In this document: positions 9,179 to 64,000 of the stretch, one piece after another
Numbering within the stretch: position 1 is the first letter of the stretch
Layout: every line of letters begins with the position of its first letter
Assembly (NCBI GenBank): GCA_945861715.1
Contig: CAMAVK010000001.1
Location: 458,908-522,907 of the forward strand
Source of the DNA: Candidatus Woesearchaeota archaeon
GTDB lineage: Archaea; Nanobdellota; Nanobdellia; Woesearchaeales; GW2011-AR9
Length of the DNA: 64,000 bases
Direction: 5' to 3'
Notes under the pieces: generated by a model
Seen by the model: the letters and a program-made list of their open reading frames with translations, nothing else
The model's database searches: none
Told to the model about the DNA's origin: nothing
Translations under genes and position numbers: made by a program

Positions 9179-9189
9179 TTTTTATCTTT

Positions 9190-9870: not shown

Positions 9871-9911
9871 TCACTTACCTCGCAAAAATGTTATTTACAA
9901 AAGAATATATC

Positions 9912-15828: not shown

Positions 15829-16080
15829 ATGCCTGCAGTACTTGATGGACTATTGGATAAAAAGACCGCATCATTACTGAAAGTTCTTTTAAAAAATAAA
15901 GACGAAATATACCATCTCCACTCTCTTTCTAGGGCGTCAAAAGTACCCGTCTCCTCTACTTCTAGAATTGTAACTAAACTAATCAAATTAGATCTGATAA
16001 CAACAAGAAAAGTCGGCAATATGGTCCTATTCCAAGCATCAAATTCTGAAAAAGCAAAATTGGTGGGTGATTTGCTATGA
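15829..16080 (+). CDS. Small winged-helix (MarR/ArsR-like) transcriptional regulator
   Basis: 83 aa. Helix-turn-helix region IYHLHSLSRASKVPVSSTSRIVTKLIKLDLITTRK followed by a beta-wing (VGNMVLFQ). Its TGA stop overlaps the start of the giant surface-protein gene (ATGA). Confidence 0.5.
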   Translation: MPAVLDGLLDKKTASLLKVLLKNKDEIYHLHSLSRASKVPVSSTSRIVTKLIKLDLITTRKVGNMVLFQASNSEKAKLVGDLL

Positions 16081-19000: not shown

Positions 19001-21080
19001 TCTGATGCAAATATTTTCCAATGATTCAAGTAACAACATCAATGCAACAGAACAAGTATTGTTCTATGTGAACGAGACGGACGGTCCTCCAAATGTAACT
19101 CTAGTTGCAGTAAACGTATCAAGCGTTAATCAAACGCAGCATGTCAGAATCAATGCAACTGTCATGGATGCAATAAGTGTAGATACCGTTAAAACGCAAA
19201 TATACTTCCCTAATGGCTCAATCCAAAATTTCACGATGAGTAATGTGAGCTCCTACTATAACACCACCTATATCACAATTCTCACATCAAACATTGGAAA
19301 TCATACCGCGCAAATTATTGCAAACGATACCAATGGAAATAGAAATACCACTCAAAACGTCACCTTTTGGGTATACGACATCACACCACCCAATGTCACA
19401 GCTTTAATCCCGACAAATCAATCCACTGTATTCACCGGAACCAGCATTCAAATCGCAGCGAATGTAACAGACAACACTGCTCTCTCAACAGTATACGCAA
19501 ATATCACCTATCCAAATAGTTCAATCACCTCATTGCCCTTATCGTTAGCAACAGGTGCCAAATACAACTCTACTCTCACCTTGGGTTCATACAATGGAAC
19601 CTACACACTCCTTATCTTTTCCAATGATAGCAGCAATAATATCAACGCCACCGAACAAACACAGTTCTTTGTAAACACCTCAGATAATGCGCCAGTTGTA
19701 ACCTTGCTAAACCCTGCAGACAGCTATACGAATACTACTTCTACCTATCTTGAGATGAACTTTTCATGTTCTGCAACCGATGATTACGCCCTACGCAATA
19801 TCTCATTATACCTAAGCAATCCATCAAACACCAATTTTAGTCAGAATCAAAGTACTCTTCTTAATGGTACAACTAACTCTACTTCATGGCTACTTAATCT
19901 TACCCAAGGCTCCTTCACCTGGAACTGTCAAGCAATTGACAACAGTACTCAACTCGATTGGGCATCAAACCGCAGTATAACCCTATCTGCCCCTTCTTCC
20001 TCAAGCAGCAGTTCAAGCTCCTCCGGTGGTGGTGGTGGAAGTAGTTCAAGTACATCGAGTAGTAGTGGCGGGCCTATACCACAAAAAAGAGTAGATGTAA
20101 ATGCAACCCCGACATGTCTATGGAATGAAAGCATCATCGCAGGAAATTGCATGTACAATGAAAGTAATGTATTGCTAAATGCTTCACCTACTGAGATCCC
20201 AATAAACTCAAACCAAGGAATATTCAATTTAGTGGGAAGAGCATTTGATATAAACATCCATGCCTTTGGTCTAGACCTTAGTCTACTTTACATTGCCTTG
20301 ATGGTATTCCTCTTGGGCTTATTAGTGCTTTTACTGACCAGACGAAAACGACCATACCTTATTATTCAAGCACCAACCATGGCCGCCCCCGGTGACACCT
20401 TTGATGTAAACGTCAAACTAGGTAATGATTATCGGCCAGTTGTATTAAGAATTTGGAGTATTTTCGTTCCTGAGGGAGAAGTTGGTCTGCTAAACATCAA
20501 AAATATTATCGGCAAAGGCCCAACCTATCGTCTCGAAGTAGACCGATCAGAAATAAGGCGTGGCACCATTCCTGTGGCTATACCAGCACAGTTTATGCCG
20601 GGGAAATATCGAATCATCACGTGTGTGCGGTGGGAATACAAGAAGACAAATGAGCCAAAATCCCTTGTAGAAAAAGGAACAACCCAAGAAAAAATAAAAA
20701 TAACTGCTCATCAAAATAAAATAACGGTTACCCAAACTAAGTTACCTATCCCACCTGCGCTTCTAGTATTAGTGGGTAAACGAAGTCGGCTTCCAGAAAA
20801 TATCGCAATCAACTTACAAACCATGCGTGAAAAGCTCGCGCCAACTGCAAACATTGTTGAACTCGCAAGAACTCGTGAAGAAATTGTACTACGTATGCAC
20901 CAAGCAGAGAAAATGCATAACTTGCGTCTCAAAAAGTTAGAAATCGAAGAGGATATGCGACACACCGAAGAAGAAGGAGTACTACAGCTTCAGTTAACGA
21001 GACTAAATAGTACATTAACTAAGAATGCGGCACCCGTGCAACGCTCAACACAAACACCCACAAAAAGGGACAGAAAGTAA
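16077..21080 (+). CDS. Giant (1667 aa) heavily sequon-decorated surface protein: signal peptide, conserved N-terminal module, about 12 beta-sandwich repeats, poly-Ser/Gly stalk, single TM, ~260-aa cytoplasmic tail with a coiled coil
   Basis: Signal peptide LRLSLFIIILLLTSATVLA. N-terminal module homologous to the 13622 protein (ANPCYTNPAVLSGVDGSWSTNLANL...CSGFWATGDAIW...SGTGLQYL). N-x-S/T sequons occur every ~5-10 residues. Stalk SSSSSSSSSGGGGGSSSSTSSSSGG. TM LLYIALMVFLLGLLVLLLTRRKRP. The cytoplasmic tail ends in a K/E/R-rich coiled coil. Confidence 0.7.
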   Translation: MSQSTKSTKTVLRLSLFIIILLLTSATVLAATKPIAGYIFKTDGTTVAPNASVRVYVNQASVSAANPCYTNPAVLSGVDGSWSTNLANLKRADNGNDCSGFWATGDAIWANAIGQNVTPEHGNLSTANTTIASGTGLQYLSNVSLPAGPDRIAPVIRLIAPPNATNNTNGSILFQYNVTDDSLISNCSVLFNGTINTTNTSITRNITMNFSLTNIADGHYNWSVGCYDNVTNYNTSIETWFLNVSKVGHYNLSLVTPTSNTSVEQNQFFTFTMQVKCYDGSCGDTNASLDPIILGEDQTIVSQNKFHSQGFFEKIWSYFAEFFSGNLITGQVTGALVPMVPTTPFYTNMSNPMNLSNVSCLANMAQNSACNVTWYVNASGPVGTVAEFWAFTNSTIYTALNNETPHLFISIVESIPPAIINYTPRGETFNVTQLIEISLNTTDPQNISFVKANITYPNATVDLINLTRVGTTDKYNSSYTIPPRTGFYLIKFWVNDTGNNINGTTQTNFTGQDIVPPNVTTLLPAISTSYNTSQIIQISLNATDVTNISTTFATITSPNSTKTNVTLSRQGTTYKYNGTYTVPPRIGTFNITFFANDSKNNINNSEVSNFTVLDGEYPRLATIVEAPTDPATYVYNQTYFFNITITDNIGINNVIMQFNNTNYTAEIKNQSTIFQFNISDLAAATYNYVWYANDTSGYINSTSSTYTISKASSTVNLTLYGNDSNTNISVNTPVNLSGVRIAGDGQIELLQNGSVLSLGNTSTSSNQTYTTLTSYNISIRHNSTQNFTASQEDHVLAIKDYISPNVTLVTVNASSVNQTQHVRINATIIDNLQIDSIKTQIWFPNGSVQNFTMNNISSSFNTTYITILTSNIGNHTAQILANDTSGNRNTTQNVSFWVYDITPPAVTLLIPANQTTLGNGTTIQLSSTTTDNIAISSTYANITYPNNSIQSIPLTLTTASKYNSSLLLGQQTGIYLMQIFSNDSSNNINATEQVLFYVNETDGPPNVTLVAVNVSSVNQTQHVRINATVMDAISVDTVKTQIYFPNGSIQNFTMSNVSSYYNTTYITILTSNIGNHTAQIIANDTNGNRNTTQNVTFWVYDITPPNVTALIPTNQSTVFTGTSIQIAANVTDNTALSTVYANITYPNSSITSLPLSLATGAKYNSTLTLGSYNGTYTLLIFSNDSSNNINATEQTQFFVNTSDNAPVVTLLNPADSYTNTTSTYLEMNFSCSATDDYALRNISLYLSNPSNTNFSQNQSTLLNGTTNSTSWLLNLTQGSFTWNCQAIDNSTQLDWASNRSITLSAPSSSSSSSSSSGGGGGSSSSTSSSSGGPIPQKRVDVNATPTCLWNESIIAGNCMYNESNVLLNASPTEIPINSNQGIFNLVGRAFDINIHAFGLDLSLLYIALMVFLLGLLVLLLTRRKRPYLIIQAPTMAAPGDTFDVNVKLGNDYRPVVLRIWSIFVPEGEVGLLNIKNIIGKGPTYRLEVDRSEIRRGTIPVAIPAQFMPGKYRIITCVRWEYKKTNEPKSLVEKGTTQEKIKITAHQNKITVTQTKLPIPPALLVLVGKRSRLPENIAINLQTMREKLAPTANIVELARTREEIVLRMHQAEKMHNLRLKKLEIEEDMRHTEEEGVLQLQLTRLNSTLTKNAAPVQRSTQTPTKRDRK
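18485..19690 (+). repeat. Near-identical 603-nt (201-aa) tandem duplication inside the giant surface-protein gene
   Basis: Unit 1 (NVTLVTVNASSVNQTQHVRINATIIDN...ITILTSNIGNHTAQILANDTSGNRNTTQNVSFWVYDITPP...FSNDSSNNINATEQ) is repeated immediately as unit 2 (NVTLVAVNVSSVNQTQHVRINATVMDA...ITILTSNIGNHTAQIIANDTNGNRNTTQNVTFWVYDITPP...FSNDSSNNINATEQ). Nucleotide strings such as caagcgt(c/t)aatcaaacgca(a/g)catgtcagaat(a/c)aa(c/t)gcaac recur at 18519 and 19122. Confidence 0.85.
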
Positions 21081-21644: not shown

Positions 21645-22364
21645 ATGTCCAATACTAATCGACGAGAAATGCTACTATCCCTAACCTCAATTATTGTTAC
21701 ATCACTACTTGACCCTCTCCCTCAACAAGCTCAAGCAGAGACCCCGCGCGAGTTGAAAAGAAAAGAAGAAGAGCTAAGAACAATCTATCTTTTACAAAAC
21801 GCAAGAACCCAGTATCCTCTTCCCCAAGGCGTACACGTCATTGATTCAGTAAGTGGTGGCCGAGATTTTGGTGCAACCAGGTGGCGTCATGGGAAACGCG
21901 AAAGGCACAACGGTATTGATCTCTTTGTTCATCAGGGAACCGATGTCTACCCGATAATTCAGGGAAAAGTAAAATCAGTAACCAGGGAACGATACGCCGG
22001 CAAATTTGTTACTGTTGAATCTCTCTATCCTTTCAAATTCAAAAAAAGTTCTCCCATTGAAGATGCAATCATCTATACCGACTACATGCATTTACAAACC
22101 CAAACAGTTCGTCCTGGCCAGAGCGCACAATTCAACACTATTTTAGGAAAAGTAGGCAGGACAGGAGTACATGTATCTGGGCCACATCTCCATGTGCAGA
22201 TGTACACTAAACGAAACGGCGCAAAAATATTCATTGATCCACGAAAAGCGCTTTCGAGTGGTTCCTATTACAGTCTCATTGAATCCAGAGGAAAAGAAGA
22301 TGTATATCGCGAGGAATTTAATCGTATCAATTATCCTACGCAGTACGTCAGAACAACACTCTGA
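21645..22364 (+). CDS. Secreted M23 (LytM/lysostaphin-type) zinc metallopeptidase
   Basis: N-terminal signal/TM (LLSLTSIIVTSLLDPLPQQAQA). M23 HxxxD motif HNGIDLFV and HxH motif GPHLHVQMY, with the intervening glycine-rich core (ILGKVGRTGVHVSG). Confidence 0.7.
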   Translation: MSNTNRREMLLSLTSIIVTSLLDPLPQQAQAETPRELKRKEEELRTIYLLQNARTQYPLPQGVHVIDSVSGGRDFGATRWRHGKRERHNGIDLFVHQGTDVYPIIQGKVKSVTRERYAGKFVTVESLYPFKFKKSSPIEDAIIYTDYMHLQTQTVRPGQSAQFNTILGKVGRTGVHVSGPHLHVQMYTKRNGAKIFIDPRKALSSGSYYSLIESRGKEDVYREEFNRINYPTQYVRTTL

Positions 22365-25960: not shown

Positions 25961-26072
25961 CGGGCCCTGAGGGATTTGAACCCCCGACCTCGTGGTACCT
26001 ATCAATTACTCATTCCTTTCGGATTAGCAATGTTAAGAGCCACGCGCTCTAGCCAGCCTGAGCTAAGAGCCC
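25961..26072 (-). tRNA. tRNA-Lys (anticodon CUU) with a ~37-nt canonical-position intron (after nt 37). CCA is not encoded.
   Basis: Minus-strand read GGGCTCT-TA-GCTC-AGGCTGGCTA-GAGC-G-CGTGG-CTCTTA[intron ACATTGC...GATAGGT]A-CCACG-AGGTC-GGGGG-TTCAAAT-CCCTC-AGGGCCC-G. All four stems pair, U33 and A37 are present, and the T-loop is TTCAAAT. Exons are at about 26034-26072 and 25961-25996. Confidence 0.85.
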
Positions 26073-35145: not shown

Positions 35146-37638
35146 ATGACCAATAGTGTACTTGATGTTGATGAACAAAATCTTACTCCTGGGATGAAAC
35201 AATACAGGGAAGTAAAAGAAAAACATCCAGACTGTGTAGTCATGCTTCGCATGGGAGACTTCTTTGAAATGTTCTATGAAGACGCGGTCACTGCGTCAAG
35301 AGAGCTCGACATCACTTTAACATCCCGTGGTCAAGGTGAAAAACGCGCACCACTCGCAGGCATTCCCTTTCATGCTATTGAACCGTATCTAGGAAAACTT
35401 GTAAAGCGCGGCTACAAAGTTGCAATTGTAGAACAACTTGAAGATCCAAAAAAAGCCAAAGGTCTAATCAAGCGTGGAGTAGTGCGAATAGTTACCGCAG
35501 GAACTTTAGTTGAATCATCTCTTCTTACCGAAAAAGAAAATAACTATCTAGCAAGCATTGCAATTCACAACACAAGCGCAGCTCTTGCCATTGCTGACAT
35601 CTCAACAGGTGAGTTTCGAATCGAATCATTTTCAACATTATCAGACCTATTCGCATCCCTCACCCAAAATAATCCCTCAGAAATACTGCACGCGCACAGC
35701 TTAGCTGTAAACTCCGACATCATCGCCCGTCTGAAAATCATCGCTCCTCTTGAATCACTTGATGACCAACTTTACAAATATGACGCAGCAAAAAAAAGAA
35801 TCTGTGATTTCTTTAATCTAACTTCTCTAGATCCCTTTCAGCTTGAGAATCAAAAATTAGAAGTTGCGGCCGCCGCATCACTATTGAACTATCTCGAGAA
35901 AACCCACAAAACAAAACTAGTACACCTAACAAAAATAACCAGATCAAGTACCAAGCATATGATCATTGACGCAAATACCTTTCGCAGTTTAGAAATCACG
36001 AAATCCCTTAAAGACGGATCAAAAAAAGGCACGTTACTTGAAGTATTAGACGACACCAAAACAGCCCTCGGCGGACGCCTCTTGAACAAATGGCTCACAG
36101 CTCCCCTCCAAGATCAAATTCAAATGCAAGACCGCATCGCAGCCATTACTGATTTAAAGTCATCTTCTCTACGTCTCGCCCAACTCCAAAATACCCTCAA
36201 CACTATTCAAGATATCGAACGACTTCTATCGAAGGTACATACAGCCATTGCCACCCCAAAGGACATCTTAAGTTTACGTAACTCGCTGCGACCACTCCCA
36301 ATCCTCATAACTCAACTCTCACCAAAAACACTTCGTGCATTAAGATTAAAAGAAATCGCCACCTTAAATACTCACCACGAGTTGGTTCATTATCTCACAC
36401 AAGCAATGCGTGATGAAGCTCCGCACAGCACCCGTGAAGGTGACATCTTCAACTCAGAGTTTCACCAAGAACTCTCTAGTTTGAGAAACATCCGTGATCA
36501 CGCATCCGACATCATAACGAAAATTGAAGAAGCTGAAAAAAAGAAAACGGGAATTAATTCTCTCAAAGTAGGCTACACACGAATATTTGGGTACTACATC
36601 GAAATACCTCGAAAGAATACTCAACAAATCCCTACGACCTACATGCGAAAACAAACAACTGCCAACGCCGAAAGATACATAACTTCCGAATTAAAAGAAA
36701 TGGAAGACAAAGTTCTCAATGCTGATGAGAAAATAAAAGAGTTAGAATATACCCTCTTCCATGAACTTTTAAACAACATAAAATTTCATACTTCCGAGTT
36801 ACAAGAAACTGCCAAGCATATCGCAGAGCTCGACGTACTCTGCGCGCTCACCAGCGTCGCGATAAAAAATAATTATCATGCCCCAACACTATCCAACGAA
36901 AAAGATCTAATCCTTACCAACGCAAGACACCCCGTCGTAGAAACGCTTGCATCAAATTTCATCTCAAATAGTATCACGCTGCAAGACGGACATATGATGA
37001 TCATCACTGGACCAAACATGGCTGGTAAATCAACCATCATGCGACAGTGCGCATTAATAATCTACTTAGCTCATATTGGCTCCTACGTTCCAGCAACATC
37101 CGCAATCATCCCACTCACAGATAAAATATTTAGTCGAGTAGGAGCTCAAGACGATTTAGCAACAGGAAAATCAACCTTCTTAGTTGAAATGCATGAAACT
37201 GCACACATAGTAAACAACGCAACCGCCAATTCATTTATTATCCTTGACGAAATCGGAAGAGGAACAAGCACCTTTGATGGTGTCTCCATTGCGTGGAGTG
37301 TAGCTGAGTACATTCATAACCACATCCGCGCAAAAACCATGTTTGCCACACACTATCACATACTAAACAATCTCACTCAAACTCTTCCTCGAATTGAAAA
37401 CTTCAACATCGCAGTCGAAGAAAATCAAAAAGAAAATTCCATCACCTTCTTACACACATTAATCCCCGGCGGAACGGATCAAAGTTATGGGATTCACGTC
37501 GCAAAAATCGCAGGCATCCCCCAACAAATCCTCGAGCGTGCAACACAAATACAACAGACATTAGAAAAAGATGACAAAATGGTGCGTCTCCTTAAAGCGA
37601 AGCGACTCGACGACCAGAAATCAATAACTGAATTTTAA
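35146..37638 (+). CDS. mutS: DNA mismatch repair protein MutS (bacterial-type MutS1)
   Basis: Domain I mismatch-binding motif LTPGMKQYREVKEKHPDCVVMLRMGDFFEMFYEDA (Phe-x-Glu). Walker A ITGPNMAGKSTIMRQ. Walker B/ABC signature IILDEIGRGTSTFDG. HTH-like C-terminus. TAA stop. No mutL in the window. Confidence 0.88.
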   Translation: MTNSVLDVDEQNLTPGMKQYREVKEKHPDCVVMLRMGDFFEMFYEDAVTASRELDITLTSRGQGEKRAPLAGIPFHAIEPYLGKLVKRGYKVAIVEQLEDPKKAKGLIKRGVVRIVTAGTLVESSLLTEKENNYLASIAIHNTSAALAIADISTGEFRIESFSTLSDLFASLTQNNPSEILHAHSLAVNSDIIARLKIIAPLESLDDQLYKYDAAKKRICDFFNLTSLDPFQLENQKLEVAAAASLLNYLEKTHKTKLVHLTKITRSSTKHMIIDANTFRSLEITKSLKDGSKKGTLLEVLDDTKTALGGRLLNKWLTAPLQDQIQMQDRIAAITDLKSSSLRLAQLQNTLNTIQDIERLLSKVHTAIATPKDILSLRNSLRPLPILITQLSPKTLRALRLKEIATLNTHHELVHYLTQAMRDEAPHSTREGDIFNSEFHQELSSLRNIRDHASDIITKIEEAEKKKTGINSLKVGYTRIFGYYIEIPRKNTQQIPTTYMRKQTTANAERYITSELKEMEDKVLNADEKIKELEYTLFHELLNNIKFHTSELQETAKHIAELDVLCALTSVAIKNNYHAPTLSNEKDLILTNARHPVVETLASNFISNSITLQDGHMMIITGPNMAGKSTIMRQCALIIYLAHIGSYVPATSAIIPLTDKIFSRVGAQDDLATGKSTFLVEMHETAHIVNNATANSFIILDEIGRGTSTFDGVSIAWSVAEYIHNHIRAKTMFATHYHILNNLTQTLPRIENFNIAVEENQKENSITFLHTLIPGGTDQSYGIHVAKIAGIPQQILERATQIQQTLEKDDKMVRLLKAKRLDDQKSITEF

Positions 37639-38191: not shown

Positions 38192-39274
38192 ATGATCTAC
38201 GCTACCCTCACCCAAGAAAACCGTACAGAGAACTCGTTTAGTTTAGAAGGAAACACTGCAATTGGTCGCAAGCTCCTTCCGGATAAGGACTTATTCGAGT
38301 TATGGGAACGAAGAATAACCTCTTCCAAGCACAAAAATAATGGTGCCACACGCATGGCGCCCATTTCAGTTACAGAATTACAACATCAATATTCTCAAAA
38401 AAATCTCGATCTCATAATCAGCGACAATATTGACGTATCGCGTCGTCATCTCCTATTTTGTGTGCCTAACTGGGGAATGAATGCCTATCACGTAATCGAT
38501 TTATTCAGTTATTATGGCACCACCGTAAACGGCGAAAACTTAACTCCTGCGGTGCCTAAAAAGGTAAGCCATGGTGATAGAATCACAATTCTAGGCAAAA
38601 CTGAAATCCCTTTTATATTCAAAGAAGTAGAACGCGTTACAAAGTATGAAGCAATTATTATCGCGAACCCAGACGGGACCTTAGACTGTAATGAGCCTAT
38701 CGCAGCGGAACTAGAAGATTTACTTCTCAAACGTAATTTCAAAGTAGACACATTAAAATCAAATGTTCAACTTAAACAAGTAACAAATAGTATAGCACAA
38801 AAAGCGAGATCATTACGGTCGCACGACTATTTATTATTTCTGTATCTTGGGCATGGATCAAAAAACGGCGAATTACGTTTTGCAGATAATGGTTTCGTGC
38901 ATGCCTCAAATTTATACTCCTCACTAAGTACTGTTCCCGCAAAAAAAATCATTTTATTAGATTGTTGTTATGGGAAGAATTTTCTCATTCCTGAGATTCC
39001 TCTGAACTCAGCTGTTGCCGTAAGTACATCGAGGCTAGATCTATCTTACACCAATACGTTTACCAAGGGATTAATTCGACGATTACAAGACCCGAGGGGG
39101 GGTTATTTTGAGCGTGTGATTGATGATGCTTGCCATTATGCCGAAGTAGAATTACGTCTATGTGGGATGGAACCCGGAACAAAAGCCTCAATGGTCACTT
39201 ATTTTAATACAGCAAGAGATGAAGATCGTGAACAAGCTCGCAAAGATATGAATAATTTTATTCATCAAAAATAA
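38192..39274 (+). CDS. FHA domain - caspase-like (peptidase C14, metacaspase/orthocaspase) fusion protein
   Basis: N-terminal FHA signatures: NTAIGRK, VSRRHLLF, GTTVNGENL, GDRITILG. C-terminal C14 catalytic dyad: His in LFLYLGHGSKNGELRF and Cys in KKIILLDCCYGKN (compare the DCCHSG of metacaspases). Confidence 0.65.
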   Translation: MIYATLTQENRTENSFSLEGNTAIGRKLLPDKDLFELWERRITSSKHKNNGATRMAPISVTELQHQYSQKNLDLIISDNIDVSRRHLLFCVPNWGMNAYHVIDLFSYYGTTVNGENLTPAVPKKVSHGDRITILGKTEIPFIFKEVERVTKYEAIIIANPDGTLDCNEPIAAELEDLLLKRNFKVDTLKSNVQLKQVTNSIAQKARSLRSHDYLLFLYLGHGSKNGELRFADNGFVHASNLYSSLSTVPAKKIILLDCCYGKNFLIPEIPLNSAVAVSTSRLDLSYTNTFTKGLIRRLQDPRGGYFERVIDDACHYAEVELRLCGMEPGTKASMVTYFNTARDEDREQARKDMNNFIHQK

Positions 39275-42432: not shown

Positions 42433-43632
42433 ATGAAAAAGGTGGTTGATGCTGTTATAATTATTATACTTCTATTATCACTCACATCCATCGCACTAGC
42501 TGACACCTATATCAGTGGAGTTTTTCCCACTATCAATAGTACCAACATCAACGCGTTTCAAGTCAATGGAAATGCAGCACAAACCGGAAGTGTACTCCGG
42601 CTTACTCCCGCGTCTAACAATCAAGCAGGTAGTGCATTTTGGAAATACAAAACGGATTTTCCTGCCAACCGCTCATTTGCAACTTATTTCTCATTTCAAA
42701 TAACAAGCACGGGTGGCGGCGGAGCTGACGGATTAGTCTTTGTCATACAACCCGATTCAAATACGGCTGGATCTTCAGGAGGCGGCCTTGGATTCTCCGG
42801 CATACCAAACGCATTTGGTGTCGAATTTGATACCTATCAAAACGGTGACTATGGTGATCCGAACGGGAATCACATTGGTATTGATTTAAGCCCGGGTGGT
42901 TTGGGCAGCGTTACTTCTGTAGCCACTGTTACCGTTGACTCAATCAACTCCTCGTGGTCTCTTGAAGATGGGGCAATATATCACACCTGGGTTGAATATA
43001 ACGGGAGTACCCAAAATATTACTATTCGCTTGAACCGCAACAACAATACTCGTCCAATAAATGCAGTATTAAATTACACCACAAACCTCTCCAATGTATT
43101 TGCACAGCAAGCGTACGTCGGCTTTACTGCTGCTACTGGCGGTGCCTACGAGAATCACGATATAAACAGCTTCTTCATAAATAATAACTATCTCTCTGAC
43201 GGAATAAACATTAATACGACCACTTATCAACCCTATGCATACAGGCTACTATTAAGCCAAAGTCATTTAAACGTCTCCGCCGATGGATACTCCGTCTCCG
43301 CTATAACCATCAACGCAACCGATCTTGATGGAAACTTATTACCCACTCAAAACATTTCTTTTACAACAACCTTGGGAAACATTATGCCTTTAGGGGATAA
43401 ATATGCTTCAAGTGGTTTAACTAATAGCACAGGTCAATTGTATCCAGTCTACGCTAGTTCCCATCTACCTGGAACCGCAACTATCACTGCCTCCGTCCCA
43501 GGTGGAGCATATAATATCACTACTGTGACTTTTTTAAATAGTGGTGCAACTGTTCCTGAGTTATCAACTATAGCTCTATTCCTCATCATCGCATCTGTTT
43601 TCTCTGGGTTCTTTTATATACGCACAAAATAA
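42433..43632 (+). CDS. Secreted surface protein with an N-terminal L-type (legume-lectin-like) lectin domain, a Big-like domain and a C-terminal TM anchor
   Basis: Signal peptide IIIILLLSLTSIALA. Legume-lectin signature blocks FQVNGNAAQTGSVLRLTP...NQAGSAFW...FATYFSFQITSTGGGGADGLVFVIQP...GGGLGFSGIPNAFGVEFDTYQNGDYGDPNGNHIGIDL. C-terminal ELSTIALFLIIASVFSGFFYIRTK. Confidence 0.65.
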   Translation: MKKVVDAVIIIILLLSLTSIALADTYISGVFPTINSTNINAFQVNGNAAQTGSVLRLTPASNNQAGSAFWKYKTDFPANRSFATYFSFQITSTGGGGADGLVFVIQPDSNTAGSSGGGLGFSGIPNAFGVEFDTYQNGDYGDPNGNHIGIDLSPGGLGSVTSVATVTVDSINSSWSLEDGAIYHTWVEYNGSTQNITIRLNRNNNTRPINAVLNYTTNLSNVFAQQAYVGFTAATGGAYENHDINSFFINNNYLSDGININTTTYQPYAYRLLLSQSHLNVSADGYSVSAITINATDLDGNLLPTQNISFTTTLGNIMPLGDKYASSGLTNSTGQLYPVYASSHLPGTATITASVPGGAYNITTVTFLNSGATVPELSTIALFLIIASVFSGFFYIRTK

Positions 43633-52839: not shown

Positions 52840-54000
52840 CTAATTCAGCCCAGCATCAACCCGTTCAGGCAAATCAACTGCACTTACGTTTGGCACATCA
52901 ATCGTTGGTAACTCAGCCCGATTTTTCGTGATAGAAAGCCGATTGGATAAAATATTATACTCTTTACAAAATCGGAGTAAATTATCTGTCTTTCGTTTTT
53001 CTGGCTCACAATGCAGCACCTCACGAATAGAGTACGCAAACAAGTTCCGAGACTCCTTTGGTAACATCTGCATAAAAGGTGACCATGCAAGTGCTTGAAC
53101 AATGCGTTCAACATTGGATGTTTCTAAAACATTTGCTCTAATAAATTTTTCCACCTCCAATCCATCGCGTGATTCAAGTCGAGCAAATGGATACCTATCT
53201 AACAGTTCTAATGTTACAAGACCAAGTGCATAATAATCTGATTTCAAAGTTGGGCACCCTCGAGCCTGTTCGGGAGCGACATACTCAACCGTTCCACGAA
53301 ATGTCCCATCATCTGGTAAACAGTTTGCTTCCCCTAACCTTAATTGATCAATATTTCGAATGACTCGGCTTTCAAGTGACAGTGCAGCTGTATAATCAAT
53401 GAGTACAATACCTTCAGCTCCAAGCATGATATTACCTGGTTTAATGTCCAAGTGCATAAACCCGAGTGAGTGAAACGCATCAACTGCATCGGCTAGTTCA
53501 GAACAAAATTCTACTTTCTGTGATTTTCCATATGGTACTCGAAGATGCGAAAGTGGGTCTCCTTGTACCCGGTCCATCCCCACAAGTACACTTAACCACC
53601 CCTCATCATCAACAAATAATGTGTGGGAGCAATACCCCACCAGTCGTCCACCGTCCATTACCGAATATTTTTTTGCATCTTGTAAAATCCCAATCTCTTG
53701 GGTAATCATCTGCAATCGAACAAGCTCTGAGGGAAAGAAATCGACTATCTCTGCAAATGTCTCATCTCCAATCCTACGGCTAACCTCAAATTGCGAAAAT
53801 CTCCCCGTTTGACCAACATAGGTGCATTCTGAATCAATACTTCTCCCCTCACACCCTAATAACTTAATCTTCATTAATTTTGCAACTCGATAAGGCGACT
53901 CGGTGGCATATACAATCCCAAAACCACCTCTACCTAACTCTTCTCGTAGTCCAAAATATTCTTGAATTGTTTTCGTAACCATTTTATAAATAAGTATCAA
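52840..54000 (-). CDS. Eukaryotic-like Ser/Thr protein kinase (Hanks type) with a C-terminal extension
   Basis: Gly loop LGRGGFGIVY. VAIK Lys (RVAKLMK). Catalytic loop HLDIKPGNIML. APE motif EYVAPEQ. Confidence 0.8.
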   Translation of the reverse strand: MILIYKMVTKTIQEYFGLREELGRGGFGIVYATESPYRVAKLMKIKLLGCEGRSIDSECTYVGQTGRFSQFEVSRRIGDETFAEIVDFFPSELVRLQMITQEIGILQDAKKYSVMDGGRLVGYCSHTLFVDDEGWLSVLVGMDRVQGDPLSHLRVPYGKSQKVEFCSELADAVDAFHSLGFMHLDIKPGNIMLGAEGIVLIDYTAALSLESRVIRNIDQLRLGEANCLPDDGTFRGTVEYVAPEQARGCPTLKSDYYALGLVTLELLDRYPFARLESRDGLEVEKFIRANVLETSNVERIVQALAWSPFMQMLPKESRNLFAYSIREVLHCEPEKRKTDNLLRFCKEYNILSNRLSITKNRAELPTIDVPNVSAVDLPERVDAGLN

Positions 54001-54729: not shown

Positions 54730-55131
54730 GTGATACCAATGTTTGAATTCCTCAAAAAATCTAAGGCCACACTTACCTTAAGCGCTGAGTCCGCTGTAAA
54801 AAACCAATCCTTTCCAGCACAAGAGTTCATTCTCAAAGAAGAGAAAATTGAAATTGGAAAAAATAAATCTCCTTTCAGCGAAAAATTCATCTCTAAAATC
54901 GGCTCAAAAATTACCATCGCAAGTAATGACCTAACAAAAAAAATAAGCATAAATCACAGTCTTCTCACCTGGGATATGAACACCAGTACCTACACCTATC
55001 AAGAACAATCTGAAAAAGGATCATTAGTCAATGGCGAACCACTTGAGAAAGGAGAAGAAACGGTTTTAGAAGATGGAAGTGAAATATTAATTCACCCCTT
55101 CAAATTCACTCTGAAGTATACTCCAAAGTAA
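54730..55131 (+). CDS. FHA-domain protein
   Basis: IEIGKNKS...ISINHSLLTWD...KGSLVNGEPLEKGEETVLEDGSEILI follows the FHA pattern G(R/K)...S..H..l...(S/T)xNGT.vNg..l...l.dGD.i. Confidence 0.5.
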   Translation: MIPMFEFLKKSKATLTLSAESAVKNQSFPAQEFILKEEKIEIGKNKSPFSEKFISKIGSKITIASNDLTKKISINHSLLTWDMNTSTYTYQEQSEKGSLVNGEPLEKGEETVLEDGSEILIHPFKFTLKYTPK

Positions 55132-57033: not shown

Positions 57034-57186
57034 ATGACCCTATCCTACTCTCAAATCGTGCACGCAGTCGGTCTGCCTTTTCTATTTTTACTAACTCTCG
57101 TAATTATCTTATTCACTTTCCTCATATTACTATATTTTGGCAAATCAAAGCGACACATTCGAAGATCAAGCCCGGTAAACAACTGA
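57034..57186 (+). CDS. Possible 50-aa single-TM micro-protein. Not in the ORF track because it is under 60 aa.
   Basis: ATG...TGA ORF MTLSYSQIVHAVGLPFLFLLTLVIILFTFLILLYFGKSKRHIRRSSPVNN upstream of the 57319 gene. Hydrophobic core plus a basic tail. Confidence 0.2.
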   Translation: MTLSYSQIVHAVGLPFLFLLTLVIILFTFLILLYFGKSKRHIRRSSPVNN

Positions 57187-57318
57187 GTTAAATGCACTTT
57201 TTTCCCATTCACTGCATCCACACTTATCTTCAAGCAAGTAAAAAATACTCCTTAAAGACGCTATTTCTCCCGCACAAAATAAGCAATATTTATAAACCAA
57301 ATCGACCTGCTTCAACGG

Positions 57319-59355
57319 ATGTTCCAAAAGAGGTCAGATGTAGAGGTACGTATAGCACCACCATATCTAAATTCACCTCGCAAACACCCACATTCAAGAA
57401 GACACCTCAGAAGCCACAAAGGTCAAATCACTATCTACATCATTTTAGGAATAATTATTCTATTGGCCTTAAGTCTCTTCATGGTGTTTCAATATTCTAT
57501 CACCACAAGTAAACCCGATGCTGTACTACCAGGGGGACAAGGAAAAGTGAGCAACTACCTCACCAGTTGCATTGAACAAGTTGCCAGTCAAGCCCTCTCA
57601 CATATGGGGCAACAAGCAGGCTACGTCACCGTACCAAAAGAAGTCGAACTTGACGGTGCAAAACATCTACGCACCTCACCAGTAACAGTCGCACCATTTT
57701 GGGCCTACGGAACAACCACCACAATTCCAACCCAAGATCAACTCAAAAGTCGCCTCGATACCTATATCCAAACGAACCTTCGCGATTGCGTCATGAACTC
57801 CCAAGGACTGAGAGATTCCTACAACATACTCGAAAAAAGTGAAGTTTCTTCAGACGCTAAAATCCACCCAAAAGGAATTACCTTCAGTGTAAAATGGTCA
57901 ATTGAAATACAAGACAAAGCAGGCGAAGTTATCACCCAAATAGATGATCATATCTACGAATCAAACGTCAAACTTCAAGACCTTCGGGATCTAGGAGAAA
58001 AAATAATCCTTGCCGAACTAAGTGAAATGAAACTTGAAGACTTAACTCAAGACATGATCGCTCTTGAACATCCACAACTTCCTGTTTCAGGAATCGAGTT
58101 TGCGTGCTCAAAAAAGAAATGGAAGTTTGATGAAGCAAAAGACACCTTGCAAAACATGCTTCGAGTAAACCTCGCGCAACTACAAATCAAAGGAACCAAT
58201 CCTTCAACGCCTCACACTGCAGATCTTCCTTATTATCAAAATCACTACGAATGGAACATCGGAGAATTATCGTATTCCAAAATCACTCCACAATTCCACT
58301 ATGATGCAAACTATCCATTCTCATTTGATGTGTCCCCGCGTGGCGGAAATTATTTACAAAGTGAAAACCTCATCCCCAAATCAAAATACATTTCATTATT
58401 ATGCCTTCAAACCTGGAAATTCGCATACGATGTAACCTATCCTATCATGCTTACATTAACAGACGACACCACTGGCTATCAACTTAAAATCCCCTTCACA
58501 GTTGAAATGGAAAACAATTACGCCAACCGTCATCAAACAATAAAACCAAATTCACCAATTCTCCTGAGTACTCAAACGAGTGATGACTACTGTAAAACCG
58601 CAAAAACACCTATGCTCGTAAAGACCCAAGAAATTGTGGATAACCCCTATACCGGCGTGCACACAACTCAACCACTAGACAACGCAAAGATCACCTTTGT
58701 ATGTCTCAAATATGATTGTACTATCGGACAAACCGAATATAACTACGGCGGCATGGGTGACGTCGCTGCAATCAACACTAACTTCCCTGCGTGTGTTGGT
58801 GGATACGTGCGATCTGAAAAACCATATTATACCATGGCTCAAGAACGTGTCATCATCAACTCAAATCCAAATCAAGAAGTAACCCTCAACTCTATTCCTC
58901 TCTATCCTGTAAGTTTAAACAAAATCACCATTAAAACTCACACCAATAGTGAGGATGGAATCGGTCCTGCTCAAGACTTAAAAGACAATCAAGTAGCCCT
59001 CATCAAAATCACTTTTGATCGCGGAAACGAGACATACAACCCACTCCACTTACCAAATCAAGAGTCATCACTTGTCGTATCTCCCTTACTCGACGAAAAA
59101 ACAAAATCATCGCAAACACTCGACCTCCTCGCTATGGCCGAGTTTACCTACGATGTGGATATCCAAGTGTACGAAGATGAAAACCTCATCTCTTCCTATC
59201 GTGGAAACTGGACAGTTCCGTGGGAAGACCTTGAGTACAGCTCACATATTACCTTCCATACGATTCAAGCACCAACCGAAGACGAAAAATTATACAACTA
59301 CATCGAAGATTTAGGAACCATCAGTAAAACAGTTCCCCTCCCTGAAATTCAATAA
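57319..59355 (+). CDS. Membrane-anchored large extracellular protein (678 aa)
   Basis: Basic N-terminus, then the TM helix ITIYIILGIIILLALSLFMVF. Long beta-rich ectodomain with scattered Cys. TAA stop. Directly upstream of the giant Cys-rich ORF on the same strand. Confidence 0.5.
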   Translation: MFQKRSDVEVRIAPPYLNSPRKHPHSRRHLRSHKGQITIYIILGIIILLALSLFMVFQYSITTSKPDAVLPGGQGKVSNYLTSCIEQVASQALSHMGQQAGYVTVPKEVELDGAKHLRTSPVTVAPFWAYGTTTTIPTQDQLKSRLDTYIQTNLRDCVMNSQGLRDSYNILEKSEVSSDAKIHPKGITFSVKWSIEIQDKAGEVITQIDDHIYESNVKLQDLRDLGEKIILAELSEMKLEDLTQDMIALEHPQLPVSGIEFACSKKKWKFDEAKDTLQNMLRVNLAQLQIKGTNPSTPHTADLPYYQNHYEWNIGELSYSKITPQFHYDANYPFSFDVSPRGGNYLQSENLIPKSKYISLLCLQTWKFAYDVTYPIMLTLTDDTTGYQLKIPFTVEMENNYANRHQTIKPNSPILLSTQTSDDYCKTAKTPMLVKTQEIVDNPYTGVHTTQPLDNAKITFVCLKYDCTIGQTEYNYGGMGDVAAINTNFPACVGGYVRSEKPYYTMAQERVIINSNPNQEVTLNSIPLYPVSLNKITIKTHTNSEDGIGPAQDLKDNQVALIKITFDRGNETYNPLHLPNQESSLVVSPLLDEKTKSSQTLDLLAMAEFTYDVDIQVYEDENLISSYRGNWTVPWEDLEYSSHITFHTIQAPTEDEKLYNYIEDLGTISKTVPLPEIQ

Positions 59356-59393: not shown

Positions 59394-62300
59394 ATGAAAA
59401 CTGCAACACGTTCAAAACAATTAACGGTACTCGTTTTCCTCACTCTATTATTTCTAACCCCAATTGCGCACGCGCTCGAAATAAGTAATGTCCAAACAAC
59501 TGATATTACCCAAAATAGCGCATCTATAACCTACCAAACAGATGAACCTGCTAATACCATCATAAGCTACGGAACCGATGCAGCCCAACTCAAAACCATT
59601 GGTGATGCGCCAAAAGTCACAACGCACAAGCTCATACTCCCTGATTTAACCGCAAATACAAACTATATCTATAAAGTACAAAGCGAAGAAGTAACCAACG
59701 ATAACCAAGGAGCACTCTATACCTTCCAAACTCTTGCACCCGACACAACCCCTCCAACTATCACAGCTGACATCCAAGCCACCCTCACCGCAACCCAACT
59801 CTCATTTACGGGAACAACAGAAGCGCACACCCAAGTCATCCTCAAACTCAACAATAAATACGTGCAAGAAACAAATACCAAAGACACCACCACTTTCGAG
59901 TTCAACAATATTATTCTTCTCCAAGACGTACAAAATAATATCACTCTCACAGCTAAAGATGCTGCAAATAATGAAGCAAGTATAACCGCAATTGTTACTG
60001 CTGACATTGCAGCACCAAGAATTATCCTCGCTGAATTTCCTGAGTTTGTCTCAGACCACAAAGTCACCCTCAAAGGAAATCTCACCGAACCAGCAAAAAT
60101 TCAGATTGAAATTAATGATCGAAAACTCCAAGATGTAGATCTAACAAACACACCAACCACACTCAATCAATTCATTCCGTTCTCTGTTGATCTTCAATTG
60201 CAAGAAAACATGAATAACATCACCCTCACCGCAGTTGACGCAGCAAACCACTCAACCACCAAAGAAATCAAAATACTCTCAGATACCCAACCCCCCCAAG
60301 TAAGAATTGACATCAGTCGCGGTAAAGAATACTATGAAGGTCGAGCCACATCCACTATTGATGGACATACCGATCCACTTGCCACTCTCTACCTATATAT
60401 ATACACCCCGCAGCCTGCAGAATATTATCCTGACTTCAAACGCGCACGAGCAAAAACAACCGCCGATGAAAATGGAGACTTCACATTCAAAGACGTATCG
60501 TTTTCTGGACCAGGATTTAGAGATGCAACCTTAGAAGACTTCACCCCAAAAGAACTTCCAAGCGCATTAGTGCAAGAACCAATCTATCCATTCCAAACCG
60601 GAACAAATGCAGAGTCTAAACCCTATTATATCTATATTATTGCTGAGGACAAAGGAGGACACACCGGCTACGGAAAAGAAACCGTTCAGGTAAACTCCTG
60701 TTACTCTCCAAACTTTGATTTCTCAATTGAAAGCATGCCAGAATTCCAAGCACCACTCAAACTCATGCCTCAACTTCTCGATGACGGAAGGCAAGACATC
60801 CAAGCAACCTTCAAATTCACATATCTGGGTCAAGGCATGCCAAGCAATAATCCTAATGGCGGCCTGGAAGATCGTGGCATCAGAATTACTCAAATGGATA
60901 TCGAACCGGCATGTACCGATGGCATGGCTAAAGATGATAAATATAGTATCGGCTGCAAAATATTCCCTCGGTCTCAACCTAACCCAAAAATTCCAAACGT
61001 TGACAAAACCATATGGTATACTGGATGGAAATTATTACCTGCTGCTGACTTCTTAGAACGCGAAGACAGCACCTGGGACGACTTCAAAAAACGCCAAGTC
61101 ATCTTTCCAATCAAAGTAAAATTACGGTATTCCGAAAAAACCGCGGAAAACTCGTGGAGCGAAGCCAAAGAACAATACTTCTGTACTGACATTGGCTACT
61201 TCGTTGACATCCCTCTTGAATCCAAAGAATATATGCCTGACTTCCTCGCACACGACGCAGTCAACGCACTCAATTGGACAATTGACAAATTACATACCGC
61301 AACCCCCTATGTTGAACAAGCCTATTTAATTTCAGGCTACAGCTGTATGGGTTCCTTCTTACTCAAAACCACCGCTCGCTTCGGTCGAATCTTCACCACA
61401 AAATTAGAAGTAATATATGGGGTATTCAAAGGCTCAGCATCCAAAGCCGAGCGAGATGCCAAAAACATAGATGTAGCCAAGTGCCCAACTACTCAAGATG
61501 AATTATACCGTGAAGATGAATTAGAAAATTATCTGAAAATAAAACAAAACAATAATGATGCTTGGAATCAGTTCTTGGCCAGTTTTCCAAACACTGCAAA
61601 AGGTAAATCGAGAAAGGCCGCTCTCGAGTTAGCGTTACAATCCCCGCATGGTAAAGATTGGGAGATCATTTCCTTAGACAAACGATGCCCCAAAACAGCA
61701 ACCGCATGGACCATTGAATCCGCTTTAGATAAAGCGTACAAGTGGAGTTGTGATCGAGCATTCTGTCGAACCGTTCCCGCCGGATGGACATCGGATGTTG
61801 ATTTGGGAGCAATTGACAAAGTAATCCAATCCCAAAAGGAATGTGCCGTAACAGGTCGCGGCGTTCCTCTTGTCAAAAAAGAAAACTGTAAAGAATTAAT
61901 TAAGAGCAACGTCGTTGCAAGTTATGAATCAATTGGCGACTCTGGAACATGCTGGCAAACCGCTGATGGAAGCCTTTATGTTAATGATCAAACTGATGAC
62001 GCCGTTGAAAAAATAGAAAAATCAGGCAGTTTAAAAAGTACTATTCAAGATAATATTGAAGACCCAAATAGTGCAGGAGTATACTATTTGCGTTTCGTTG
62101 GAAAGCCACTAGAAGATTTTGTCGCCAAAAAGCCAAATCTCCTCGTGTACAAACCTGCAGGCTCCGACACTCCAATTGTTGGTCGTGATAAAACCTGTCA
62201 ACAAGTCTGTGGAGGAAACTCTCGGGTACAAGGATTTGGTGCTGATGTAAAAGATAGCCCTCCTCATGGATGTTGGGATGAAGTAAAAGATGATTTAGGC

Positions 62301-64000
62301 AAAACAATTTTCCAAAAACCAGGCACCACTGAAAAATTAGGCGATAAAACTGCTGGTGACGCAAACCAGCCAAAAAAATATCCTGCTGGGTACACCAGTG
62401 ATTGTTTTATCAAATCAAACACCTTTGTAGGTCCCCTGCAAGAAGGACAAACGTCTCGACCAGAAGATGTTGTAACAAATGAAAACGGCGAACCAATCCT
62501 CCAACAGTGTGTCTGTGTTGGAGCATCACCTGAACAATCCGAATATTCCGCTCGAACTGCAATCAAAGAGTATTCTAATGTGAAAGAAGAATGGTTCTAC
62601 CATCAAGAACAGGTATTTAGAGAAGACAAAAGTAGTGGAGTAGGTACATACTATCCAAAACAACGATATTATACTGGCCGCGACGTGTCAGGGGCCTTTG
62701 GAGCAGACTATCTCTTTGACTACATTCACACAACTGATGAGACTAAAACAGAACCAGTGGTAAGTCCTCATGCAAGTATTGTTGGAACCGTGCAAACGAT
62801 GTGCCTCTCCGGCATCCTCAAAAATATGAAAATGCTTGAAGCCATGTTAACCGGTATTCGAAATTGTTTAGTAGAAGCAAAATATACTGGACTCCAAGAT
62901 GCCGGCATGTGTAAAACATTATTCACGCAGCAAGTCTGTGGACTTCTCTACAAAGCCATTGCCTCAGCAACTTCAGGCTGTACACCATCAACATTTGAAG
63001 ATTTAGCAAAAGAGACAATCTTTGGTGATGTAGGCACCATCATCAAAGCAGGAACCGAAGGAATGGGTGAAGCCGTATCAACGAGCATCAATGACATTCA
63101 AGAGGATTATGGCAATGCCAAACTCAATGAATACTTCAAAGGTGGAACTCAAGGCTTCGCACAATCCATTTGCCTCGCTGCATTTGGATACGACATCCCG
63201 CTCTTCGACGATAGTTTCTTACTTGACGCAGCCTATAGCTTCCCTGTTCATTCCGCGGTCCTCGTCATGCCAGCAAATAGAGAACTCTCAAGCTACAACC
63301 CAGCCAAACAAACCGCTGTATATAATTATCAAGTTGGCGCAACGGTATTACCCGGCTGTAAAATGTCACATTGGTCGGTCAAACTCAAATGCATTGGCCC
63401 AGAAGACGCAACTGGTCAGGGAATCGATGAAAGCTGTGATGGTCAAGGTTGTGATTGTAAAAACATAGAGGGAGCATCCCCCTATGATAACCAACGAACA
63501 ATGATGCTCGCGCAAGACAACGCCGCACAATCAGGCAGTGTTCTCAATATTCCAATTGAAACACCAGTGCGCAGCGAAGGACCATTCAGATATGATCACG
63601 TTGTAGTTGAACTAACACTTGATGGCTCAGAAAAAGGAAACGAGGACGCGTGTTTCGATAAAGAATATTTGAATGGCAATAAAGCTACATATTACTATCC
63701 AATCTCCGATCATTCACCAAAAGTATTAGCCGGATGTTCCCCACACATTGCAACCGGTCGATTCACCTGTCCGCAACTTTCAAACCTTCTTGGTTTTGGC
63801 GCAGCATACATCGAAGCACCAGATGTATCCTGTTGGAATGAAAAAACACAAAGTAGAATGGATTGTAACACACCTAATCTCTACACCATCAACGATCGAA
63901 TTAAGGTAGGAGCACACCTTTACCTCGACGGAAAAACATACTGCCTCAAACGTACGATTACAGGTGTTCCAGGTATCGCGCGAGATGAACCACCAAAATT
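59394..64000 (+). CDS. Giant secreted cysteine-rich protein, more than 1535 aa, open to the end of the window (3' partial)
   Basis: ATG at 59394, signal peptide LTVLVFLTLLFLTPIAHA, and a reading frame with no stop through position 64000. It is absent from the ORF track only because no stop lies inside the window. FN3-like and Big-like N-terminal domains are followed by a >1000-aa region with dozens of Cys (CYSPNF, CTDGMAKDDKYSIGC, CDGQGCDC, CPQLSN, ...). Confidence 0.7.
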   Translation, partial: MKTATRSKQLTVLVFLTLLFLTPIAHALEISNVQTTDITQNSASITYQTDEPANTIISYGTDAAQLKTIGDAPKVTTHKLILPDLTANTNYIYKVQSEEVTNDNQGALYTFQTLAPDTTPPTITADIQATLTATQLSFTGTTEAHTQVILKLNNKYVQETNTKDTTTFEFNNIILLQDVQNNITLTAKDAANNEASITAIVTADIAAPRIILAEFPEFVSDHKVTLKGNLTEPAKIQIEINDRKLQDVDLTNTPTTLNQFIPFSVDLQLQENMNNITLTAVDAANHSTTKEIKILSDTQPPQVRIDISRGKEYYEGRATSTIDGHTDPLATLYLYIYTPQPAEYYPDFKRARAKTTADENGDFTFKDVSFSGPGFRDATLEDFTPKELPSALVQEPIYPFQTGTNAESKPYYIYIIAEDKGGHTGYGKETVQVNSCYSPNFDFSIESMPEFQAPLKLMPQLLDDGRQDIQATFKFTYLGQGMPSNNPNGGLEDRGIRITQMDIEPACTDGMAKDDKYSIGCKIFPRSQPNPKIPNVDKTIWYTGWKLLPAADFLEREDSTWDDFKKRQVIFPIKVKLRYSEKTAENSWSEAKEQYFCTDIGYFVDIPLESKEYMPDFLAHDAVNALNWTIDKLHTATPYVEQAYLISGYSCMGSFLLKTTARFGRIFTTKLEVIYGVFKGSASKAERDAKNIDVAKCPTTQDELYREDELENYLKIKQNNNDAWNQFLASFPNTAKGKSRKAALELALQSPHGKDWEIISLDKRCPKTATAWTIESALDKAYKWSCDRAFCRTVPAGWTSDVDLGAIDKVIQSQKECAVTGRGVPLVKKENCKELIKSNVVASYESIGDSGTCWQTADGSLYVNDQTDDAVEKIEKSGSLKSTIQDNIEDPNSAGVYYLRFVGKPLEDFVAKKPNLLVYKPAGSDTPIVGRDKTCQQVCGGNSRVQGFGADVKDSPPHGCWDEVKDDLGKTIFQKPGTTEKLGDKTAGDANQPKKYPAGYTSDCFIKSNTFVGPLQEGQTSRPEDVVTNENGEPILQQCVCVGASPEQSEYSARTAIKEYSNVKEEWFYHQEQVFREDKSSGVGTYYPKQRYYTGRDVSGAFGADYLFDYIHTTDETKTEPVVSPHASIVGTVQTMCLSGILKNMKMLEAMLTGIRNCLVEAKYTGLQDAGMCKTLFTQQVCGLLYKAIASATSGCTPSTFEDLAKETIFGDVGTIIKAGTEGMGEAVSTSINDIQEDYGNAKLNEYFKGGTQGFAQSICLAAFGYDIPLFDDSFLLDAAYSFPVHSAVLVMPANRELSSYNPAKQTAVYNYQVGATVLPGCKMSHWSVKLKCIGPEDATGQGIDESCDGQGCDCKNIEGASPYDNQRTMMLAQDNAAQSGSVLNIPIETPVRSEGPFRYDHVVVELTLDGSEKGNEDACFDKEYLNGNKATYYYPISDHSPKVLAGCSPHIATGRFTCPQLSNLLGFGAAYIEAPDVSCWNEKTQSRMDCNTPNLYTINDRIKVGAHLYLDGKTYCLKRTITGVPGIARDEPPK

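Follow-up and report, generated by a model that had tools for sequence, protein, structure and literature searches.

Few uncultured archaea are as widespread as the Woesearchaeota and, to our knowledge, it is not known which hosts they have or how they make contact with them. The question of how such cells might touch a partner is raised by one locus at the end of a 64,000-nucleotide (nt) stretch of a Candidatus Woesearchaeota archaeon (contig CAMAVK010000001.1, positions 458,908 to 522,907; this whole stretch is referred to as the window, and positions are counted from its first letter), in which a very large cysteine-rich secreted protein, here termed the giant protein, is encoded from position 59394 onwards. 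A preliminary description of the window had put such proteins forward as candidates for host-cell attachment. Gene order, conservation and motifs lead us to propose that the giant protein may be the large secreted subunit of a conserved surface complex that is peculiar to Woesearchaeota-type DPANN archaea and on which tagged hydrolases of murein and lipids would be displayed towards bacterial cells, a reading that we consider evenly balanced between right and wrong. The earlier published record on contact in Woesearchaeota consists only of extracellular murein lytic transglycosylases, and no description of the giant cysteine-rich family, its two partner proteins, their fixed operon or the shared tag was found in the literature searched.

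Translation of 59394-64000 on the forward strand (+) gave 1,535 codons with zero stops, for which the chance expectation is ~1e-44 at 39.5% GC, and the closest in-frame stop on the 5′ side is at 59343-59345. The single frame of more than 4.6 kb from the ATG at 59394, which the preliminary description had noted as missing from the list of open reading frames (ORFs), is indeed uninterrupted, and it was dropped from that list only because frames running off the window end go unlisted. A search of a protein collection recovered the full-length product (P0001), a protein of 1,865 amino acids (aa) that is encoded on a 797-kb contig and matches the entire query at 100% identity. The organism is also represented by a second assembly (L001), which agrees with the window at every base of a 14,607-nt overlap and places the stop codon that had been sought beyond the window 991 nt past its end, equivalent to window positions 64989-64991. 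Given the identical full-length product and the position of this stop, the window holds the 5′ 82% of one gene (1,535 of 1,865 residues). The possibility that the frame belongs to several shorter genes is likewise answered by 34 full-length homologs, by the identical 1,865-aa product and by the absence of any in-frame stop.

The protein is predicted to be secreted by a Sec-type signal peptide comprising residues 1-27 (59394-59474, +), with predicted cleavage at AHA↓LE. All three parts of such a signal are present in the N-terminus, MKTATRSKQ-LTVLVFLTLLFLTPIAHA↓LE, namely a basic n-region, a hydrophobic core (Kyte-Doolittle peak over residues 7-31) and an AxA site. Ala-27 is invariant in the 34 homologs and Leu-28, Ile-30 and Ser-31 are invariant or nearly so, which bears out the signal peptide proposed earlier. 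No transmembrane (TM) segment follows the signal peptide in residues 1-1535, and none is evident in the C-terminal 330 residues.

The 34 full-length homologs (1,730-2,190 aa, 34-69% identity) can be aligned over their entire length, with 35 invariant cysteine columns. The full protein contains 40 cysteine residues, of which none falls in residues 1-435 and 35 fall in residues 436-1535 (3.2%), including CxC, Cx3C and Cx4C motifs. The cysteine-rich body (60684-63998, +; residues 431-1535) corresponds to the ectodomain of more than 1000 residues claimed in the preliminary description, and 32 of its 35 cysteines are invariant across these homologs, with one more at least 90% conserved. The cysteine-free N-terminal region (59481-60281, +) gave three weak matches to fibronectin type III (FN3)- or immunoglobulin (Ig)-like families: residues 30-113 matched Pur_ac_phosph_N (E 8e-5, score 23.6 vs cut-off 30) and fn3 (E 6e-3, 17.2 vs 25), residues 129-204 matched Big_6 (E 3.5e-3, 18.0 vs 27.6) and residues 232-296 matched Glucodextran_B (E 6e-5, 23.4 vs 27). 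The FN3/Big-like domains of the preliminary description are candidates only: every match in the protein itself lies under the Pfam gathering score, and precomputed matches to the same Pfam families recur in most homologs.

A profile of residues 431-1535, searched against 1.84 billion cluster representatives, retrieved 586 clusters (counted at 50% identity) with E <= 1e-3, of which 220 reached E <= 1e-30. Among the matches listed, most of the family members that look complete were 1,500-2,700 aa long, and the distant members matched chiefly the last ~490 profile positions, roughly residues 1015-1530. This part overlaps the most conserved core, common to all family members (62511-64000, +; residues 1040-1535), which is predicted to consist of a cysteine-studded amphipathic helical bundle and a beta domain modelled at high confidence. 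In an alignment of 58 sequences down to 24% identity, Cys accounts for 11 of 16 invariant columns and Tyr, Pro, Gly and Leu for the others. With a composition of this kind there is no obvious catalytic signature among the invariant columns, suggesting a scaffold rather than an enzyme. AlphaFold2 models of residues 431-1535 (mean predicted local distance difference test, pLDDT, 67.6; predicted template modelling score, pTM, 0.51) and, from a deeper alignment, of residues 1040-1535 (pLDDT 74.7, pTM 0.62, beta domain at ~90) displayed predicted beta-sandwiches, a 63-residue helix, cysteine-studded helical bundles and further beta domains. Single-sequence and profile searches of PDB sequences were empty, and no relative of the cysteine-rich core was found in Pfam, NCBIfam or PDB folds.

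All named members of the family are annotated as 'hypothetical protein' and derive from metagenome-assembled genomes (MAGs) of Candidatus Woesearchaeota, Nanoarchaeota or 'archaeon'. The window itself carries markers of an archaeal genome (TFIIB, PAC2, archaeal L1/L10 and a probable intron-containing tRNA), and together these observations agree with a DPANN-type archaeon as the source organism. When one genome per GTDB species was scanned with a pattern, relatives were identified in 107 contig stretches, from at least 107 species genomes, and 79 loci were retrieved. Many third-party annotation MAG records that contain the operon (L003, L004, L012, L017 and ~25 other loci) are titled 'uncultured Methanosarcinales archaeon', a name that has the look of a placeholder or misassignment.

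The giant gene does not stand alone. Directly upstream and on the same strand lies the gene of a 678-aa protein (57319-59355, +), the first of the operon and here termed the anchor, which has one N-terminal TM helix (residues 33-63) and an extracellular part of ~620 aa; the membrane-anchored neighbour mentioned in the preliminary description is thus a real and conserved ORF. Synteny was analysed in 81 loci, with partner homologs placed by tblastn and flanks of up to 10 kb on each side. An anchor homolog directly precedes the giant gene in 75 of these loci and a homolog of a small protein directly follows it in 71, the gaps being contig ends. The resulting order is a ~670-aa anchor, a ~1,900-aa giant protein and a ~190-aa small protein, followed by one to three secreted proteins. 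In the second assembly, the genes downstream of the giant gene on the same strand encode a 183-aa protein, a 719-aa Peptidase_M23 protein and a 543-aa SLT protein. Three distant loci (38-41% identity) keep the same arrangement of PAC2, a ~660-aa protein, the giant protein, a ~200-aa protein and large domain-bearing proteins, the enzyme domains of which are Exo_endo_phos with GDSL, GDSL with Metallophos, GDSL with DUF218, Amidase_2, and DUF218 with a faint M74. Comparison of L001 with another locus, L002, gave 40% identity for the anchor and 38% for the small protein, and no homology between the enzyme-bearing proteins. The chromosomal neighbours are constant across dozens of species, with PAC2 upstream and enolase, RelA or Fpg downstream.

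A single conserved promoter appears to serve this gene set. An archaeal TATA-like box, TTTATAAA (57289-57296, +), is located 30 nt upstream of the anchor ATG at 57319, and in 57 of 58 loci the homologous ATG is preceded by such a box at a distance of 22-40 nt (28-30 nt in 53 loci). No TATA-like box is present in the 38-nt gap before the giant gene. The TTTATAAA box is probably the operon promoter, giving a leaderless or near-leaderless mRNA from the anchor gene. The automatic annotation of L001 calls a shorter anchor of 624 aa (8088-9962, equivalent to window 57481-59355) whose first residue would be a Met lying within the TM helix; because of the conserved TATA box and a conserved MxKKR N-terminus, the predicted start is the ATG at 57319 instead. 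PAC2 and the operon promoter are 418 nt apart, and in this interval a 50-codon ORF, MTLSYSQIVHAVGLPFLFLLTLVIILFTFLILLYFGKSKRHIRRSSPVNN (57036-57188, +), was read by eye as a putative small single-TM peptide. The window also encodes a Ser/Thr protein kinase (52840-54000, −) and two FHA-domain proteins (54730-55131, +, and 38192-39274, +), and a regulatory link of the operon to the kinase and the one FHA gene a few kb upstream is possible.

The enzyme-bearing proteins are the variable part of the locus, and it is in these that a common element was detected. Both enzymes of L001 exceed the Pfam gathering score (Peptidase_M23, 31.0 bits vs 28.7; SLT, 57.7 vs 21.3) and are predicted murein hydrolases. 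Despite their different domains, the enzyme-bearing proteins share a module of ~50 aa, C-x3-Q-x-C-x-E-I-D-x-V-W ... V-W-D ... W ... Y-P, in which D, W and W do not vary among 22 examples. Referred to below as the tag, it is flanked by Ser/Thr/Pro-rich linkers and takes variable positions in the proteins (residues ~50, ~270 or ~550). A hidden Markov model (HMM) of the tag, run on six-frame ORFs of the 81 loci and the window, matched 68 ORFs, all on the strand of the giant gene and downstream of it, with zero matches upstream, on the opposite strand or in the 64-kb window (flanks up to 10 kb). The window encodes other secreted proteins and an untagged M23 protein, yet no tag. A signal-peptide-like N-terminus is present in 66 of the 68 tagged ORFs. 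No Pfam family covers the tag, and a search with the alignment of 22 sequences against a collection of 5.8 billion proteins gave nothing at E <= 1e-3, the module being too short.

Pfam analysis of 66 tag-bearing proteins identified SLT and FGE-sulfatase (13 proteins each), GDSL lipase (11), DUF2272 (nine), Amidase_2 (seven), Peptidase_M15_4 (six), Metallophos (five), DUF218 (four), M23, Exo_endo_phos and Phage_lysozyme2 (three each) and Polysacc_deac_1 (one), and no housekeeping domain among them. Peptidoglycan is a bacterial polymer that is absent from archaea, and the SLT, Amidase_2, M23 and M15 families act on it. The predicted specificities point to bacterial rather than archaeal targets, and the implied target of the tagged proteins would be bacterial peptidoglycan instead of an archaeal host. 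Extracellular murein lytic enzymes have been described in Woese- and Pacearchaeota and may target bacteria (PMC8204110; PMC9723730; PMC12352652). The role in interaction with other cells that had been suggested for the giant protein alone is strengthened by the predicted murein hydrolase genes just downstream.

How the giant protein, which is devoid of a membrane segment, could be retained at the cell surface is suggested by motifs in its two partners. In the anchor, a look-alike of the prepilin-type class III signal peptide of the EppA kind (57418-57489, +) reads K34-G35↓Q36-I-T and is followed by a hydrophobic helix to F57; the window sequence K34-G35↓Q36-ITIYIILGIIILLALSLFMVF combines a basic residue at −2, Gly at −1 and Gln at +1 with this helix. 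The motif [KRQ][GA]Q[VIL]T is found in 66 of 75 anchor homologs (as KGQV, KAQV, KGQI or RGQV), which typically read [KR][GA]Q[VI]T and then FIILGILLLLAL. This motif matches published EppA sites: in Methanococcus maripaludis, pilins processed by EppA have RAQI, KGQV, KGQV, KGQL and KGQI, and Gln at +1 is conserved in EppA substrates (PMC4371748). The small protein displays KKG↓xxxxE plus a helix in most homologs, with G, A or S at −1 and E or Q at +5 in 55 of 71. Apart from these motifs, the anchor family has no relative in Pfam, NCBIfam (scanned for three members) or PDB, its sole Pfam match being a chance-level hit to US29, and scans of the small protein likewise yielded no informative Pfam or NCBIfam family.

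Taken together, we propose that the two pilin-like proteins may hold the giant protein at the cell surface, where, stiffened by ~20 disulphides, it would serve as a platform. The tag would dock interchangeable hydrolases onto this platform and thereby bring wall- and lipid-cutting activities together where the archaeon meets a bacterial cell, be it to attach, to feed or to kill. The conservation of the giant protein across the order, with invariant positions that are mostly Cys, Gly, Pro and aromatic, suits a scaffold better than a fast-evolving adhesin.

Several observations weigh against this proposal. Docking by the tag and display by the pilin-like proteins are both deduced from gene order and motifs. 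The pilin motif of the small protein is degenerate in the window's own genome (MADNNAITEILVF), no Pfam or NCBIfam pilin HMM matches either partner, and neither a prepilin peptidase nor PilB/PilC was found among the window ORFs scanned (64 kb of a ~0.8-Mb contig, plus 11 kb); a preprint moreover states that DPANN genomes miss type IV pilus components (10.1101/2020.05.14.094862). Given the missing HMM matches and the content of the preprint, the prepilin-like resemblance of the partners appears to be a strong lead and not membership of the pilins, and their processing is a prediction. The structural models are of moderate confidence (pLDDT 68 and 75), so that the lack of a fold match is inconclusive and a core with no recognisable relative is not proof of a new fold. 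As for the enzymes, enolase follows the small protein in four of 48 loci with no enzyme gene adjoining, and the 13 FGE-sulfatase proteins, together with the phosphoesterases, are not obviously wall-directed.

The alternative that survives best retains the same complex and gives it another purpose, namely that of an antibacterial or scavenging weapon lysing nearby bacteria, in 'vampiristic' feeding or competition, with no specific host attachment. We consider this unlikely. In its favour, the tagged set is dominated by murein hydrolases, lipases and nuclease/phosphatase-type domains, archaeal peptidoglycan hydrolases have been reported to kill bacteria (PMC12352652) and predation has been put forward as a lifestyle of Woesearchaeota (PMC9723730). 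Enzymes tethered to a cell-bound scaffold would nevertheless favour contact-dependent action. The weapon differs from the surface complex proposed above in ecology, not in molecular layout, and present data do not separate the two.

An adhesin acting in host attachment by itself, functionally independent of the neighbouring genes, is closest to what the preliminary description envisaged and appears improbable. The large, cysteine-rich and secreted nature of the giant protein would suit it. Near-universal synteny of three genes behind a single conserved promoter argues for a joint function, however, and order-wide conservation of structural residues in the core is unusual for receptor-binding adhesins. 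The giant protein also has no membrane or cell-wall anchor of its own, and the tag on the enzymes would be left unexplained.

In Sulfolobales, the S-layer is built of two components, SlaA and SlaB. By analogy, the giant protein might be the main S-layer-type envelope protein with the anchor as its stalk, and the hydrolases merely co-located surface enzymes. A large secreted protein lacking its own anchor and encoded beside a membrane-anchored partner in one operon, among core genes such as PAC2, enolase and RelA, is what such an arrangement would look like. S-layer proteins are, however, densely provided with N-X-S/T sequons and usually diverge fast, whereas the giant protein has five sequons vs ~14 expected and keeps 34-69% identity with 35 invariant Cys. 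A better candidate is encoded elsewhere in the window (16077-21080, +): a 1,667-aa protein that has a signal peptide, 126 sequons where 42 would be expected, Ig-like repeats (weak Big_7) and a TM helix in its C-terminal part (residues 1394-1424), and that is likely to be an S-layer or surface glycoprotein. Neither would an S-layer account for a hydrolase tag that is specific to the operon, and we regard this explanation as quite improbable. A viral or mobile-element origin, in which the cluster would be a tail- or entry-like module with virion-type lysins, was rejected as extremely improbable, for while Phage_lysozyme2, SLT and M23 are typical of phage tail lysins, no relative of the giant protein was found in 2.9 million viral contigs, the chromosomal neighbourhood is the same across dozens of species, and each locus has one copy with no integrase or capsid genes seen.

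With its three-gene core and defined promoter, the surface complex proposed here would offer a tangible candidate for how Woesearchaeota make contact, one that spans the order and can be tested. The tag would mark enzyme partners in any genome and allow the entire 'cargo' repertoire of each to be catalogued, and such a repertoire (amidase, M15 or SLT vs lipase content) could predict the envelope type of the host. The conserved core of the giant protein, having no solved fold relative, is a clear target for structure determination. A bolder extension, which we hold to be rather doubtful, is that most Woesearchaeota-type DPANN share an undescribed cellulosome-like 'wall-breaching' machine made of a giant disulphide-stapled scaffold that lacks a known fold relative, two pilin-like holders and swappable hydrolases of peptidoglycan and lipids recruited by a lineage-specific tag. 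If true, this would imply that the whole order lives on or preys on bacteria, not archaea.

Other surface and notable genes were observed in the window. The 16077-21080 ORF was also considered as a paralog of the giant gene and rejected, the similarity being limited to weak Ig repeats. Directly downstream of it lies the gene of the 239-aa Peptidase_M23 protein devoid of the tag (21645-22364, +; 53 bits in Pfam), which a BLAST search of the window with the M23 domain did not locate. A 399-aa protein (42433-43632, +) joins a legume-lectin domain (E 5e-40) to a Big_1/invasin-like Ig domain, an unusual pairing for an archaeon, and is a candidate for a further glycan-binding surface protein. Two adjacent orphans of 498 and 986 aa (4683-6179, +, and 6218-9178, +), both of which combine a signal peptide with a C-terminal TM helix and have no or weak Pfam matches, are further putative surface proteins. 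A 112-nt tRNA (25961-26072, −) was identified by Rfam (50 bits) and missed by ARAGORN, and its length is consistent with an archaeal tRNA that contains an intron. In this DPANN genome, a complete MutS of the bacterial type with all five domains (830 aa) is encoded at 35146-37638 (+).

Comparison with known systems places the locus near several of them and inside none. At the tip of bacterial type IV pili, minor pilins present the non-pilin adhesin PilY1/PilC. Similar to this case, a large non-pilin protein with a Sec signal is encoded between prepilin-like genes, with presumed presentation of an interaction module at the surface. The giant protein, however, has no Pfam, PDB-sequence or PDB-fold match to PilY1/PilC, the anchor of ~670 aa is far above the size of a minor pilin, and no pilus machinery was identified among the window ORFs scanned. 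The bindosome of Sulfolobus provides a parallel for the partners, being assembled at the envelope from surface proteins that bear prepilin-type sites and are several times larger than a pilin (PMC4371748). Unlike the Woesearchaeal partners, which contain no known domains and whose function would concern hydrolases, the bindosome subunits bind sugars and need the bas PilB/PilC.

In the cellulosome, a scaffoldin with cohesins is combined with dockerin-tagged enzymes. The likeness lies in unrelated secreted hydrolases that share a short linker-flanked module and are encoded beside a non-catalytic giant protein, likewise secreted. Neither the giant protein nor the 66 tagged enzymes gave a Pfam match to cohesin or dockerin, and only the logic of scaffold and tag is common to both; the tag here is a ~50-aa Cys/Trp module at variable positions, and the substrate would be the bacterial envelope in place of the plant cell wall. 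The SPEARE proteins of Nanohaloarchaeota are single polypeptides of several thousand residues with their own protease, adhesion and nuclease domains. They too are giant secreted DPANN proteins, proposed to act in host contact and envelope breaching. They differ from the giant protein in that no enzyme domain was detected in the latter, the enzymes here being tagged products of separate genes. A further precedent comes from the same lineages, where extracellular murein-active proteins have been proposed to mediate contact with bacteria; that report covers the SLT proteins themselves (PMC8204110). SLT is the commonest wall-active domain among the tagged proteins. The system thus appears to resemble the PilY1/minor-pilin tip, the bindosome and the cellulosome in function, and it falls outside each of them by sequence and domain content. 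The complex would be one of the surface host-interaction type with tethered hydrolases, built of components that have no known relatives.

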